A program made the position numbers and the translations under genes. Shown one piece after another: positions 22,379 to 38,978 of a DNA stretch of 64,000 nt (positions are counted from its first letter, which is position 1; each line of letters begins with the position of its first letter). The notes beneath the pieces were generated by a model. That model saw only the letters and a program-made list of their open reading frames with translations. It had not been told where the DNA came from and did no database searches. Source of the stretch: Dehalococcoidia bacterium (lineage in GTDB: Bacteria; Chloroflexota; Dehalococcoidia; Bin125); NCBI GenBank assembly GCA_965247775.1, contig OZ252031.1:148294-212293 (forward strand). The letters are read 5' to 3'.

Positions 22379-22487
22379 GCGCGATCGCGAGTGTTCACGG
22401 GGGCTTTCGCGCCGGGCGGCCCTGTTTCGAGGGCGCGCGGATTGGTAGAATTGATGCACGGATTTGCCCCGGGAGAGGACCCCCAGC

Positions 22488-25412
22488 ATGGTCAGTGGCG
22501 AGGACGCGATCCGTCCGTCGCAGGTGCGCGAGATCGAGACGGAGATGCGGACCTCGTATCTGGACTACGCGATGAGCGTGATCGTCTCGCGGGCGCTGCC
22601 GGACGTGCGGGACGGGCTGAAGCCGGTGCAGCGGCGCATCCTGTTCGCGATGGACGACTTGGGGCTGCGGCCGACGACGCCGTTCAAGAAGAGCGCGCGG
22701 ATTGTGGGGGAGGTGCTGGGCAAGTATCACCCGCACTCGGACAGCCCGGTGTACGAGGCGATGGTGCGGATGGCGCAGAGCTTCACGCTGCGCTACCCGC
22801 TGGTGACGGGGCAGGGGAACTTCGGGTCGATCGACGCCGACCCGCCGGCCGCGATGCGCTACACGGAGGCGCGGCTGTCGGCCCTGGCGGACGAGATGCT
22901 GACGGACATCGACAAGCAGACGGTGGATTTCAGCCCGAATTTCGACGACTCGCTGAACGAGCCGACGGTCCTGCCGGGGCGGCTGCCGAACCTGCTGATC
23001 AACGGCGCGGCCGGGATCGCGGTGGGGATGGCGACGAACATTCCGCCGCATCATCTGGGCGAGATCGCGGCGGCGACGAAGCTGCTGCTGGCCAACCCCG
23101 AGGCGGACGTGGAGGAGTTGCTGGCGCTGGTGTCGGGCCCGGACTTCCCATCGGGCGGGATCGTCTTCGCGGGCGAGGGCTCCGCGGCCGTGCGGCAGAT
23201 CTACGCGACGGGGCACGGGCGGGTGACGATGCGGGCGGTGCATCACGTGGAGGACACGGCGCGGGGCGGGCGCATGCAGATCGTGTTCACGGAGCTGCCG
23301 TACCAGGTCAACAAGGCCGGCCTGGTGGAGCAGATCGCGGATCTGGTGCGGGACAAGCGGATCGACGGGATTCAGGATCTGCGCGACGAGTCCGACCGCG
23401 AGGGGTTGCGGGTGGTGGTGGAGCTGAAGCGGGACGGGAACCTGCAGATGACGCTGGCGCGGCTGCACAAGCTGACCCCGCTGCAGGCGACGTACGCGGC
23501 GAACATGGTGGCGCTGGTGGGAGGGCGGCCGCGGACGATCGGGCTGAAGACGGCGCTGGAGGCGTTCATTGCGCACCGGCGGGAGATCGTCCGGCGGCGG
23601 TCGGAGTTCGACCTGGCGAAGGCGCGGGACCGGCACCACGTGGTGGAGGGGCTGCTGGTGGCGATCGGCCAGATCGACGCGATCATCGCGGCGATCCGGG
23701 CGGCAGCGTCGGCGGACGCGGCCAAGGGGGCGCTGCAGGAGGCGCCGTTCGGGCTCTCGGAGCGGCAGGCGCAAGCGGTGCTCGACATGCAGCTGCGGCG
23801 GCTGGCGGCGCTGGAACGCACGAAGCTGGAGGAGGAGTACCGCGAGCTGACGGAGACGATCGCGTACCTGGAGGGGCTGCTGGCGGACCCGAAGCAGATC
23901 GATGGGGTGATCGCGGACGACACCGACGAGGTGACGGAGCTGTACGCGGGCGAGCGGCAGTCGCAGATCGTGGCGAAGGACGCGGAGAACTTCAGCGAGG
24001 AAGAGCTGGTGGCGCACGAGGCGGTGGTGATCTCGCAGTCGCGCGCGGGCTACATCAAGCGGATGCCGCTGGCCACGTATCGGACGCAGCATCGGGGGGG
24101 CAAGGGCATCAAGGCGATGCAGACGCGCAGCGAGGACGCGGTGCGGGACCTGGTGGTGGCGGACACGCACGACCCATTGCTGTTTTTCACGGACCGCGGG
24201 CGGGTGTTCAGCCTGAAGGCGCACGAGATCGAGGCGCGGACACGGGAGTGGCGGGGGCTGCCGATCCGCAACCTGGTGCAGCTGGAGGGGGAGGAGAACG
24301 TCACGGCGATCGTGGTGGCGAAGGATCTGAGCAAGGACTACCTGCTGCTGGCGACGCGCGGGGGGCAGATCAAGAAGACATCGCTGGCGGAGTTCGCGAG
24401 CGTGCGCCGGGCGGGGTTGATCGCATTCAACCTGCAGGCCGAGGACGAACTGGCGCTGGCGACGACGGCGCGGGCGGGGGACGACGTGCTGGTGACGTCG
24501 GATGCGGGGCTGGCGGTGCGGTTTCCCGTGGACACGTTGCGGGAGGCGTCGCGCAGCAGCGGCGGTGTGCGGGCGATCCAGATCGCGGCGGCGGGGCGTC
24601 TGGTGGGCCTGGTGGCGATCAAAGCGGGGCAGGAGTTGCTGACGATCTCGGCCAACGGCTTTGGCAAACGGACGCCGGAGCAGCAGTTCCCGCGCAAAGG
24701 CCGGGGGGGCAAGGGCATGATCGCGCACAAGGTGAGCGGCCGGACGGGGCGGTTAGTGTCGTTGCGTCAGGTGAGCGGTGAGGAGGAGATCGTGCTGATC
24801 TCCGCGGAGGGGAAGTTCATCCGAACGGCGGTGTCCTCGATTGCGCAGCTGGGGCGGTCGACGCAGGGTGTGACGGTGATGAAGACGGACGGGTTGGACG
24901 TGGCGGCGGTGGCCGTGGTGGACACGAGCGGCGAGGTGGAGGCGAGCGAGGCCGGGCCGGGCGGGGGCAGGGCCCCTGGTGGCGGAGGCGGGAAGTCGAA
25001 CGGCGGCATGGCGGCGCCGCGCCAGGCGCGGGCGAGCACGCGCGTGCCGCGGGCTGTGGCCAGGAGCACGGGCGCGCCCGGGAAGGGCGACGGCACGAGG
25101 GGCGCCAAGACGGCCGGCAAGGGCGCCGGCACGAAGGGCGCCAGCAGGCGCGGGGCGAAGGCTGTCGCTACGAAGACGGGCGCTACGAAGACGGGCGCTG
25201 CGAAGACGGGGGCGGCCAAGCGGACGGCCGGGAAGAAGGCGGGCGCGAAGAAGGGCGCGAAGCTCGCGGGGGGCCGGACGGCGACGCGCAGGCAAGGGCC
25301 CGCGAAGCCGGCAGCGAAGAAGAGCAGCGCCAAGAAAGCGGCGAAGAAGGCTCCGGCAGGCAAAGCCGCGCCGAGCAAGAGCCGCACGAAGCGCGGAGGC
25401 CGGCGGCGCTAG
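22488..25412 (+). CDS. gyrA: DNA gyrase subunit A with long Lys/Ala-rich C-terminal tail
   Basis: [16 protein letters not shown] (catalytic Tyr), GyrA-box QHRGGKG and beta-pinwheel repeats. Confidence 0.98.
25167..25211 (+). repeat. 15-bp tandem repeat x3 in the gyrA tail ([15 protein letters not shown])
   Basis: gctacgaagacgggc x2 followed by gctgcgaagacgggg. Confidence 0.85.
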
Positions 25413-25461
25413 GGTGCGCGCTTCAGTCCTGGGGGTCCCGCCGGGACCCGTCGCCGGATAC

Positions 25462-25623
25462 TCAACAGCCCGGCTGGCCGGGATGGCCGCAGCAGCCGGA
25501 GTGGGTGTGGAGCTTGGTCCAGGTGTTGCCCAGGGCGAGGCGCAGCTTGTGCAGGAAGGGTGCCTCATAGCCGCGCCAGTTGGCGATGAGCGCGCGCAGG
25601 GTGGCGCGTGGGCGTTGGGCCAC
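25462..25623 (-). CDS. Small Cys-rich protein (53 aa, ends CCGHPGQPGC); possible Sec readthrough to 25423
   Basis: Hand-translated as MAQRPRATLRALIANWRGYEAPFLHKLRLALGNTWTKLHTHSGCCGHPGQPGC-UGA. GTG start 2 nt after the upstream gene stop. Not in the ORF track. Confidence 0.75.
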   Translation of the reverse strand: MAQRPRATLRALIANWRGYEAPFLHKLRLALGNTWTKLHTHSGCCGHPGQPGC

Positions 25624-25625
25624 GG

Positions 25626-26675
25626 CTAATAGCCGCGCTCGGCGTCGACGAGGTTGTGGAGGGGCCGGCCGTCGAGGTAGCGGCGCAGGTTGTCGATGAA
25701 GATCACCGTGGCGCCAGCGACGTAGTCGGGCAGGTTGCCGGCCACGTGCGGGGTAATGAAGAGGTTGGGCTGGGCCCAGGCGGGGTCATCGGCGGGGAGG
25801 GGCTCCGGCACGGTGACGTCAGTGTAGCAAGCGGCGATCGTCGCGGCGCTGAGGGCCTGGAAGAGCGCGGGCCACTGCACGAGTTCGCCGCGGGCGACGT
25901 TGATGAGCACGGCTGTGGGCCTCATGGCGGCGAATTCGGCGGCGCCGATGAGCCCTTGGGTCTGCGATGTGAGAGGGGCGGCGAGGACGACGTAGTCGGC
26001 GGCGGCGAGGAGGTCGGGCAGACGATGGAGGGGGTAGAGGCGGTCGCAGTGAGGGGCGGTCTCCCCCTCGTGGGCGGAGCGCTTGGTGGCGAGGACGTGC
26101 ATGCCCAGGGCGGCGCAGAGGCGCGCGGTCTCGCGGCCGATGGCGCCGAGGCCGACAAGGCCGACCGTCTGGCCTCGCAGGACGTCGGGCCGCCAGCCCT
26201 TCCAGCGTGCCGCTCCCTGCTGTTCGAGCGCGCGCGGGAGTCGCTTGACGTGGGCCAGCATGTAGGCGAGGACCCACTCGGCGATGGTGACGCTGTGCAA
26301 TCCGGCGGCCGTTGTGATGGCGACGCCAGAGGGCACGCCGTTTGGGAGCACGCGCTCGACGCCGGCGCTCCAGAACTGGGCCCAGCGCAGCGGGCCGTTG
26401 GCGGGCAGCTGCAGGGCGCGAAAGGCGGGGCTGAACCAGATCTCCGCGTGGGCGACGGCGGCCTGGAAGTCCCGGCGGGCGGCGGCCGCTTGGGGGGTGT
26501 CCTGGGCGGGGTCGTCGTGCCAGGAGGAGCGCTGGCGCAGCCAGGTGAAGGTGGCGTGATCGACGGTGTGGAGGCGCAGGCGGGGGTCGACGGTGCGGAT
26601 GCGATCGGCGAGGGCGTCGTCGAGGTGCATGAGGGCGGCGATGTGCAGGGGTTCCGAGTGGGGCCACGCGGGCAT
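25626..26675 (-). CDS. D-2-hydroxyacid dehydrogenase
   Basis: GLGAIG Rossmann motif, INVARG, DV..PEPL and ITPHVAG. Confidence 0.93.
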   Translation of the reverse strand: MPAWPHSEPLHIAALMHLDDALADRIRTVDPRLRLHTVDHATFTWLRQRSSWHDDPAQDTPQAAAARRDFQAAVAHAEIWFSPAFRALQLPANGPLRWAQFWSAGVERVLPNGVPSGVAITTAAGLHSVTIAEWVLAYMLAHVKRLPRALEQQGAARWKGWRPDVLRGQTVGLVGLGAIGRETARLCAALGMHVLATKRSAHEGETAPHCDRLYPLHRLPDLLAAADYVVLAAPLTSQTQGLIGAAEFAAMRPTAVLINVARGELVQWPALFQALSAATIAACYTDVTVPEPLPADDPAWAQPNLFITPHVAGNLPDYVAGATVIFIDNLRRYLDGRPLHNLVDAERGY

Positions 26676-38068: not shown

Positions 38069-38272
38069 ATGCGCGAGGGCGAAGGCGCGACGCGGGGCGA
38101 GCGGCGAGAGCAGAAGCAGCGCAAGCGGCGCCGCGCGATGCGGTTGCATGGGGCGTCGTTGCGGCGGGTCTATGCAGCGGCCGTGCGCAAGCGGGTAGGA
38201 CGCCTGCGTCGCGGGAGAGACAGACGATCCTCGCGGGAGGAAGGCGAGGAGGGCCCAGCCGGAGCGGCCTAG
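38069..38272 (+). CDS. Small basic hypothetical protein
   Basis: 67-aa ORF (QKQRKRRRAMRLHGASLRRVY) filling the gap divergent from larA. Confidence 0.5.
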   Translation: MREGEGATRGERREQKQRKRRRAMRLHGASLRRVYAAAVRKRVGRLRRGRDRRSSREEGEEGPAGAA

Positions 38273-38739
38273 ACCTCGGTGAAGGTGGCGGAGTGGGTGA
38301 CGGTGATGGCGTCCTTGACGCTTTCGTGGGCAGGGCAGCCGGCGGGGTAGACGCGGAGGGCGCGCTCGGCGGTTTCGCGCGTGCCGAAGGGGATCTCGAC
38401 GCTGAAGTCGATATGGATCTTGGTGATGCGGATGGTCTGATTATCCGGGCCCTCGATGGCGCCGTCCACGGTGGCGCCGTAGGTGTCCCGGTTGAACTTG
38501 ACTTTGCGAGCCGCCAGAGCCCCGGCGAAGGTGCCGAACAGTCAACCGCCGACGGCGGCGACGATGTGGTCGAGCGTGGCGGGGCGGGAGGGGACGGTGT
38601 CGGGGACGTTGTAGTGCTCCCGGAGCTTGCCTTGCTGGCCGTAGAGGACGGGCTCCGCGGTGTCGCCGAGGTAGGCATGGCGCACGCCGTCCCTGAAGAC
38701 GAGCGTGTTGATGGAGTGGTACTCGAAGTGATCGGCCAT
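38269..38739 (-). CDS. OsmC-like selenoprotein (Sec at UGA 38542-38544)
   Basis: Two ORF-track pieces are in one frame, separated only by TGA in AAVGG-U-LFGT, the OsmC first-Cys position. Second Cys in GCPAHES. SECIS-like hairpin at 38512-38527. Confidence 0.85.
38512..38527 (-). promoter_or_regulatory. Candidate bacterial SECIS element
   Basis: CGCCGG-GGCU-CUGGCG stem-loop starting 14 nt after the UGA. The loop starts with G. Confidence 0.7.
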
Positions 38740-38978
38740 GTCGTGCCTCGTTCCGCGTGCCTGTGGTGGGGTCGATCCTACGCCACCGGGCGGGTCCGGC
38801 GGCACGTCGCGGCACAGAGGCGGGGGCCGGCCGGGGCAGGCGGGGCCGGGATTTCACGCTCCCCTCACACAGGCGGGGAACCTCTGGGGCGGTACGGGCG
38901 TTGGGTTGGCGGGACGCGGCGGTGGCAATGGCGCCGCCAGCAGGAGTCGAGACGGAGAGCTGAAAGGGAGCGCAGCCC

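Follow-up and report, generated by a model that had tools for sequence, protein, structure and literature searches.

Bacterial SECIS elements of the fdhF type are hairpins just after the UGA codon that are bound there by SelB, and their G-initiated apical loop lies about 16-37 nt after the UGA. Animal thioredoxin reductase has a C-terminal Gly-Cys-Sec-Gly redox centre containing selenocysteine (Sec). Hpn, the N-terminus of HypB and the tails of SlyD and UreE are His-rich, have Cys pairs and handle nickel or zinc. Annotation routinely truncates or overlooks selenoprotein genes, and each new family widens the known roles of selenium in bacteria.

The CU-motif selenoproteins named in the accessible part of the work of Haft and Gwadz (10.1101/2022.07.06.499078) are SaoC (NF040734), SaoL, SaoB, HgcA and KCU-star/DUF466 (NF033934). 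The SECIS of SaoC is described there as a triloop hairpin with G in the loop and a perfect stem of 7 bp, and the Cys forms of the CU-motif selenoproteins as "packed" with extra Cys. MbdU (NF045648) is found in Table 1 of a catalogue in which most prokaryotic selenoproteins are redox proteins (PMC13188914).

The window, the whole stretch of 64,000 nucleotides of a Dehalococcoidia genome that was analysed, contains on its minus strand a small gene (25623..25426) that very probably encodes, as a single unit, a selenoprotein of 66 residues. Sequence comparison gives good support to a widespread family of such small putative selenoproteins, about 55-120 residues long, annotated as "hypothetical" or left uncalled, and absent from the databases and catalogues that we checked. 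Like the CU-motif selenoproteins, so far as the accessible part of their description extends, the members have a vicinal Cys-Sec at or near the C-terminus, database entries that are cut at the UGA and Cys forms packed with extra Cys; the hairpin of the window also shares the 7-bp stem of the SaoC SECIS, here with the loop GGC. They differ from the CU-motif selenoproteins in that the putative Sec is not the last residue and is followed by a tail of 1-83 residues, in having their own CC-x7-CU loop together with a basic N-terminal part predicted as two helices, and in a distribution that, among the matches listed, is mainly in the Chloroflexota/Dehalococcoidia and the Actinomycetota/Acidimicrobiia. 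None of 29 members matched the NCBIfam models for SaoC, SaoL, SaoB, HgcA, KCU-star or MbdU at E<=1, and unlike the SAO locus or the CstA-linked DUF466 genes, the small gene has no ABC or other transporter beside it.

The likeness to animal thioredoxin reductase lies in a Gly-Cys-Sec on a flexible C-terminal segment, which could form a selenenylsulfide; in contrast, the small protein stands alone with its approximately 66 residues, has no flavoprotein domain, and carries a second vicinal Cys pair 7 residues upstream as well as a His/Asp/Glu tail. It shares with Hpn, HypB, SlyD and UreE a small size or flexible tail, vicinal Cys pairs, and His runs interspersed with Asp and Glu, but no sequence relationship to them was detected, Sec would be a candidate ligand, and hydrogenase or urease maturation genes are not found nearby. 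Like a bacterial SECIS, the stem-loop directly follows the UGA and has G (mostly GU) in its apical loop; where a hairpin was detected (100 loci), the distance from the UGA to the start of the loop is 16-23 nt in 93. Unlike known bacterial SECIS elements, it has no Rfam match (over 25300-25700 nothing fell below E=2.8), and where tails are very short it is located past the true stop.

Results

A small gene with an in-frame UGA

The features of the locus are collected in Table 1.

Table 1. Features of the small gene and its surroundings in the window.
Feature	Position	Strand	Basis
Small ORF, 53 codons, GTG start	25623..25465	-	ORF list (25462..25623 including the stop) and translation; ends in the family's invariant CC-G-x-x-G-x-P-G-C motif
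UGA, residue 54, putative Sec	25464..25462	-	TGA at 106 of 110 homologous loci, Cys codon at the other 4; Sec machinery present
C-terminal extension, 12 codons, acidic tail	25461..25426	-	Read-through frame
Second TGA, predicted true stop of the 66-residue product	25425..25423	-	Sequence
SECIS upper stem-loop (candidate), perfect 7 bp with GGC loop	25449..25433	-	RNAfold; aligns with the covarying helix of 101 homologs
Whole predicted element including lower stem, 5 pairs and one bulged A	25427..25458	-	RNAfold only
D-isomer 2-hydroxyacid dehydrogenase-family gene, upstream	25626..26675	-	Pfam 2-Hacid_dh_C, 171.7 bits
gyrA-like gene, convergent	22464..25412	+	Equivalent ORF in L051 matches DNA_topoisoIV and DNA_gyraseA_C

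The 53-codon ORF ends in Cys-Cys-Gly-His-Pro-Gly-Gln-Pro-Gly-Cys and is followed immediately by the TGA. A spacer of 12 nt separates the UGA from the stem, the loop begins 19 nt past the UGA, and a lower stem is predicted in which UCCGG (25458..25454) pairs with 25432..25427. Read-through gives a product of 66 residues, and the tail of this particular member is acidic and has no His. The GTG start lies 2 nt past the TAG of the upstream gene, for which all NCBIfam equivalog models scored under their cut-offs, and 10 nt separate the end of the gyrA-like gene from the second stop of the small gene. No T-tract terminator was called at the hairpin (25433..25449) on either strand, and the sequence there contains no T run. 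The initial annotation had proposed an unannotated 53-residue ORF ending CC-GHPGQPG-C before a UGA, its coupling to a D-2-hydroxyacid dehydrogenase gene, a perfect stem 12 nt after the UGA with a G-first loop at 19 nt and a lower stem, the lack of a U-tract, and a read-through product of 66 residues, all of which are borne out by the sequence. Gene callers yield the 53-residue form.

For this locus alone, the hairpin does not exceed chance expectation and is only a lead. The G+C content of the genome is 70.3%, and the folding energy of the 53-nt hairpin stretch has a z score of +0.59, with 144 of 200 shuffled sequences at least as stable. Across the genome, 1372 of 54,596 TGA triplets (2.5%) precede a comparable hairpin, counted if its stem had 7 bp or more with 5 or more G-C pairs, its loop was 3-7 nt long with a G at the first or second base, and that loop began 16-26 nt downstream of the TGA. 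The significance of the hairpin derives solely from the comparison of homologs. In the same genome the in-frame UGA of selD has the same layout as that of the small gene, a 12-nt spacer and then a stem, in this case of 5 bp with the G-first triloop GGA.

The codon at the site is TGA or Cys

When 61 related genomes were searched in six frames, the small protein turned up in 48 at E<=0.1, every one of the 36 genomes in the window's own family among them. Of the 30 top-scoring loci (L021-L050, where L021 is the window itself), 29 have TGA after the motif, and the remaining locus, L042, reads Cys-Asp-TAA. A pattern scan of one genome per species produced at least 602 stretches, of which at least 523 were confirmed by tblastn. 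The best 80 of the confirmed stretches (L051-L130) have TGA at 77 loci, TGT at two (L086 and L104) and TGC at one (L069); three of the 77 (L054, L079 and L092) lie in genomes marked unpublished, and no claim is made on those three alone. Record labels among the best 80 include Chloroflexota/Dehalococcoidia, Acidimicrobiia and other Actinomycetota, Thermoleophilia, Dormibacteria, Armatimonadetes, Desulfobaccales and others; L078 is from a Tepidiformaceae record, and isolates of Tepidiforma are available (PMC10284905).

Pooling the two sets gives 110 loci, 106 with TGA and four with a Cys codon; as the loci are related and at least L051 shares its genome with L022, these counts do not represent independent events. 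Homologs ending freely in TAA or TAG, which the initial annotation had regarded as decisive against Sec, were not encountered: neither codon directly follows the PGC motif in any of the 110 related loci. Pfam-supported neighbour genes at the same loci stop with TGA in 68 cases, TAG in 46 and TAA in seven (n=121).

An even sample of 201 genomes of the window's class contained the gene in 59 genomes at E<=1e-5, and in 47 of 146 high-quality genomes. The 67 match rows from this class sample comprise 63 with in-frame TGA, three with TAA (a single genus, all of the Cys-Asp-TAA form) and one partial match. In a 151-genome class sample around an Acidimicrobiia carrier, the gene was present in eight genomes, seven times with TGA and once in the Cys form. 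Tandem copies, two or three in number and all TGA forms, occur in some genomes.

At the protein level, a HMMER scan of 1.84 billion representative proteins returned 460 clusters (50% identity clusters) at E<=1e-3, 132 of them at E<=1e-10. Most of these clusters stop at precisely the last profile position ahead of the UGA and so are cut there. Every named member is annotated as "hypothetical protein", and the ESM Atlas contributed only unnamed "hypothetical protein" clusters. A homolog search with the single protein returned the query alone, as the word index misses so short a family. In four clusters the site is occupied by Trp, probably where a gene caller read the TGA as Trp.

The hairpin is conserved and covaries

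In 95 of 104 TGA loci the UGA is followed by a perfect stem 6 bp or longer (G-U pairs allowed, loop of 3-9 nt). Adding two further requirements, a G at loop position 1 or 2 and a distance of 16-37 nt from the UGA to the start of the loop, leaves 88 of the 104 loci passing and 16 failing. The same full rule is passed by 210 of 2160 mononucleotide shuffles, by 12 of 68 natural TGA stops and by none of the four Cys-codon loci. The loops are mostly GUG, GUU, GUC, GGUC or CGUGA.

Covariation was assessed on 101 distinct sequences aligned by MAFFT with no structure fitting, in which a helix was then found by RNAalifold. The 7-bp helix is paired in 77.6% of cases versus 59.8 +/- 1.2% in shuffled alignments, and its covariation score is 0.440 versus 0.185; neither value was reached in any of 500 shuffles. 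Changes on both sides of a pair are found in 126 cells of the helix alignment. Six slid registers all fell below the true register, the best of them giving 59.9% and 0.312. The hairpin thus both persists and covaries across the homologs, and it is retained at loci with only one or two codons after the UGA (L067, L080 and L118), which argues that it is not a by-product of coding.

The tail after the UGA behaves as coding sequence

The tails encoded after the UGA (n=104) have a median length of 18 residues and range from 1 to 83. The read-through frame has 13.2% His among its 2146 tail residues; the two alternative frames have 1.0% and 1.6%, and neighbour proteins 2.7%. The sum of His, Asp and Glu is 34.5% in the read-through frame, versus 2.5% and 5.1% in the other frames and 15.5% in neighbour proteins, and 52 of the 104 tails have at least two His residues. 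Close relatives show gain and loss of His codons in frame, and third-codon positions change most, 130 times versus 73 and 83 (29 pairs, which are close and non-independent). Tails align within subfamilies. The first 8-10 tail codons overlap the hairpin, and similarity in that part may reflect the RNA rather than the protein.

Where an Iso_dh (leuB-like) gene lies downstream on the same strand, the second stop is 3-6 nt before its start codon in 11 of 19 loci, and in these 11 the last codons of the tail supply the Iso_dh ribosome-binding site.

Nine protein clusters (P0004, P0005, P0009, P0011, P0013, P0018, P0034, P0102 and P0119) have Cys at the site followed by a His-rich tail, for example with His-x-His; at the DNA level the Cys forms are L069, L086, L104 and L042. 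An extra Cys is present 5-6 residues further on in five of 13 Cys-form tails (counted by eye), and Cys is present in none of the 104 Sec-form tails. Cys forms occur in Sec users too, as selA was found in three Cys-codon genomes (G061-G063).

Selenocysteine machinery of the carriers

The window's genome (2.78 Mb in one contig) encodes selB (328.3 bits, cut-off 242), selA (538.8 bits, cut-off 268), selD (350.9 bits, itself with one in-frame TGA) and tRNA-Sec (69.7 bits, gathering score 47). A genome devoid of selA, selB, selC or selD had been put forward in the initial annotation as grounds for dismissing read-through, and here selA, selB, selD and the tRNA are all in place. Every one of the 36 genomes of the same family scores over the selA cut-off, as do the TGA-form genomes G042, G046, G050 and G056. 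One TGA-form genome that is 85% complete (G053) gave no selA match and has selB at 369 bits and tRNA-Sec at 66.4 bits. The genome G047, of the Cys-Asp-TAA form and 90% complete, has no selA, a best selB score of 197 bits, which is under the cut-off, and a tRNA-Sec score of 44.8 bits, which is under the gathering score. Fifty further TGA-form genomes, which are metagenome-assembled genomes whose completeness is not established, comprise 43 with selA over the cut-off, three with fragments and four with none.

Protein anatomy and gene neighbours

In 96 aligned members the two Cys residues, the Gly-Cys and the Sec/Cys position are invariant, and two Asn residues and the Gly-x-x-Gly-x-Pro are nearly so; C53 and position 54, the vicinal Cys-Sec pair, do not vary in any of the 96. 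Conservation of the N-terminal 40 residues is as strong as that of the core. Residues ahead of the loop are basic on balance (median net charge +5), those of the tail acidic (median -3); 14 of 108 members start with Met-Cys, and a His-rich N-terminus is present in six of the 108. An AlphaFold2 model of a natural Cys form places helices at residues 6-15 and 20-37 in a block with pLDDT 76-83; confidence is lower in the Cys loop, and from residue 60 the tail is predicted to be disordered, with pLDDT below 50 (mean pLDDT 66.9, pTM 0.46). A beta-hairpin for the N-terminal part, suggested by hydrophobic periodicity, was dropped in favour of the two helices of this model.

Neighbours that recur in 109 loci do so each in its own lineage: Iso_dh at 30, LeuD at 16, UppS at 11, class I fumarase at 10, malate/lactate dehydrogenase at 10 and GyrA at nine. 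The neighbours at 25 further loci are diverse, and across the 109 and the 25 loci no conserved partner gene was found, the neighbours being housekeeping genes that differ between lineages. The 2-hydroxyacid dehydrogenase neighbour of the window is not kept in other lineages. A search for longer proteins revealed no recurrent domain fusion. It returned 13 longer proteins, in clusters of one or two members and four of them with four different Pfam domains, which we read as over-extended or run-on gene calls.

Searches against Pfam gave no family for the 53-residue form and, for 29 full-length members at E<=1, none save three single matches at chance level; NCBIfam release 20 (June 2026) gave no family for the 53-residue form, nor at E<=1 for any of the 29. 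No match to PF02754, which we take to be the HdrB-type CCG domain, was obtained for the 29 members at E<=1. PHROGs contained no match, and a sequence profile search of the PDB yielded chance-level matches only (E>=0.33).

Discussion

Recoding of the UGA is well supported by the comparison of homologs. In the proposed mechanism, the stem-loop 12 nt after the UGA would recruit SelB and Sec-tRNA(Sec), Sec would be inserted, 12 more codons would be translated, and synthesis would end at the second TGA. The alternative is that the UGA is an ordinary stop: the gene would encode a peptide of 53 residues with Cys at its end, and the hairpin would serve as a factor-independent terminator, an attenuator or a stabiliser of the mRNA. 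The hairpin does lie between convergent genes, a place that would also suit a terminator or a stabilising hairpin, its folding energy is ordinary for the G+C content, one in 40 of the genome's TGA triplets carries such a hairpin, and the 53-residue form is what gene callers produce. Against this, the stop is TGA at all 106 loci that have a stop there, versus TAG or TAA in 53 of the 121 neighbour genes; Cys codons occupy the exact site and are followed by in-frame His-rich tails, and the hairpin is missing from those Cys-codon loci that were scored. A terminator also fits poorly with the absence of a T-tract, and in the leuD-X-leuB arrangement it would fall inside the operon. The enrichment of His is specific to the read-through frame. 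We therefore consider an ordinary stop very improbable. Still less probable is a precursor peptide, whose Cys/Sec loop would be modified or excised by enzymes to give a cofactor or natural product in the manner of ribosomally made peptides. The small size, the conserved Cys-rich core with its variable tail and the tandem paralogs of some genomes would suit a precursor, but no recurrent neighbour of the maturase type (radical SAM enzyme, cyclodehydratase, protease or exporter) was seen in 109 loci, the conservation of the N-terminal 40 residues equals that of the core, and the gene is present in every genome of one family (36 of 36) in housekeeping contexts.

What a selenoprotein of this kind would do is a matter of more evenly balanced alternatives. 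The three Cys residues and the Sec may form a site for a soft metal ion, with the His/Asp/Glu tail aiding its capture, and the protein may be a small cytoplasmic metal carrier or buffer; we give this function a probability a little short of even, because the four soft ligands sit on a Gly/Pro-rich loop beside the His/Asp/Glu tail. A less probable alternative is that the Cys-Cys...Cys-Sec arrangement is a thiol/selenol redox centre, in which a Cys-Sec selenenylsulfide is exchanged with the Cys-Cys pair and the protein acts as a small reductant or as a relay for peroxides or disulfides. Its appeal comes from the invariant Gly-Cys-Sec and from the predominance of redox proteins among catalogued prokaryotic selenoproteins (PMC13188914). 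A thioredoxin-like protein, ferritin and rubrerythrin are among the neighbours in two loci labelled Desulfobacterota (L113 and L118), and in some lineages the gene adjoins the oxidant-sensitive Fe-S dehydratases LeuCD or class I fumarase. The His-rich tails and the occasional His-rich N-termini are features that typify metal capture rather than redox relays, the neighbouring genes include no conserved reductase partner, and Cys forms tend to gain extra Cys, as in the metal-linked CU-motif selenoproteins covered by the accessible part of Haft and Gwadz (10.1101/2022.07.06.499078).

Taking the metal-binding function together with the gene contexts, we tentatively propose a previously undescribed family of "seleno-metallothionein-like" metal carriers or buffers, encoded in housekeeping contexts (e.g. 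between leuD and leuB) in Chloroflexota, Actinomycetota and other phyla. If this is true, it would be the first CU-motif selenoprotein of core cell physiology, outside specialised metal or organometal loci. Adding the family would correct hundreds of annotations and bring a family with the rare Cys-Sec motif into the catalogue, and its very small, tractable protein could be used to study the replacement of sulfur by selenium at a metal or redox site.

None of the 119 prokaryotic selenoprotein families in Table 1 of PMC13188914 has the motif of the small-protein family, and the NCBIfam models of its CU-motif entries all gave no match. The family is also absent from the CU-motif selenoprotein list in the accessible part of Haft and Gwadz (10.1101/2022.07.06.499078). 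The accessible parts of the deep-Sep and BSepDB papers do not mention it, and their supplements and the BSepDB family list could still hold it. Full-text literature searches returned nothing on it. An unnamed selenoprotein family of 78 residues is reported as the commonest in Actinomarina, with no sequence displayed in the accessible part of that report (10.64898/2026.04.03.716425); the small-protein family was not matched in three 1.1-Mb genomes listed in our Acidimicrobiia sample.

Two other Sec candidates in the window had been mentioned in the initial annotation. At least one of them stands, an OsmC-like gene with an in-frame TGA at 38544. Elsewhere in the genome, a glycine-reductase-B-like gene with U-x-x-C-x-x-C and a thioredoxin-like gene with U-x-x-C are further Sec candidates.

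Homologs, copies and downstream genes

The small gene, whose UGA is proposed to be read as Sec before a second stop, is present as tandem paralogs in some genomes, such as the pair L048 and L049, which lie ~300 nt apart, and the three copies of the related genome G021. TGA is retained in all of the tandem copies, and the tails encoded between the TGA and the second stop are alike. A leuB-like gene follows the small gene at 19 loci, and at 11 of these the second stop is located 3-6 nt upstream of the leuB-like ATG. The final tail codons, which are GGAGG-like, also serve as the ribosome-binding site of the leuB-like gene. At L061, a DUF4440 domain and a His-rich linker precede the small-gene sequence, which reflects either a genuine fusion or a gene call that has run on.

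The only terminator-like site within 25300-25800 (shuffle expectation 0.3 sites) is found ~70 nt past the true stop of the small gene, within the 3' end of the opposite-strand gyrA-like gene, and might end the small-gene transcript. The last ~150 codons of the gyrA-like gene form a long basic tail, rich in Lys, Ala and Gly, that falls outside the usual GyrA C-terminal domain.

Other in-frame TGA codons in the same genome

The OsmC-like gene of the window belongs to a selenoprotein family already catalogued. Its TGA context is U-x-x-T, a 7-bp hairpin is positioned 20 nt 3' of the TGA, and the read-through product matches Pfam OsmC with 41.6 bits. Two further genes with in-frame TGA codons and strong hairpins, one glycine-reductase-B-like and one thioredoxin-like, lie elsewhere in this genome. 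Its selD is itself a Sec form, and the hairpin of selD shares with that of the small gene a 12-nt spacer and a G-first triloop.

Features of the window, its genome (G000, contig C1) and homologous loci
Feature	Position	Strand	Remarks
Terminator-like site	25342-25355	-	5-bp stem, T-rich tail
gyrA-like gene	22464-25412	+	
OsmC-like gene	38272-38853; TGA 38544..38542	-	Pfam match on read-through
Glycine-reductase-B-like gene	G000:C1:2238221, outside window	-	In-frame TGA, U-x-x-C-x-x-C; strong hairpin, 11-bp stem
Thioredoxin-like gene	G000:C1:1701760, outside window	+	In-frame TGA, U-x-x-C; strong hairpin
selD, Sec form	L011 (G000:C1:2509678)	+	Own in-frame TGA and hairpin
Small gene followed by leuB-like gene	L026, L033-L035, L040, L041, L045, L046 and others		
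Small-gene member with in-frame upstream DUF4440 domain and His-rich linker	L061:2566-3123		186 residues up to UGA
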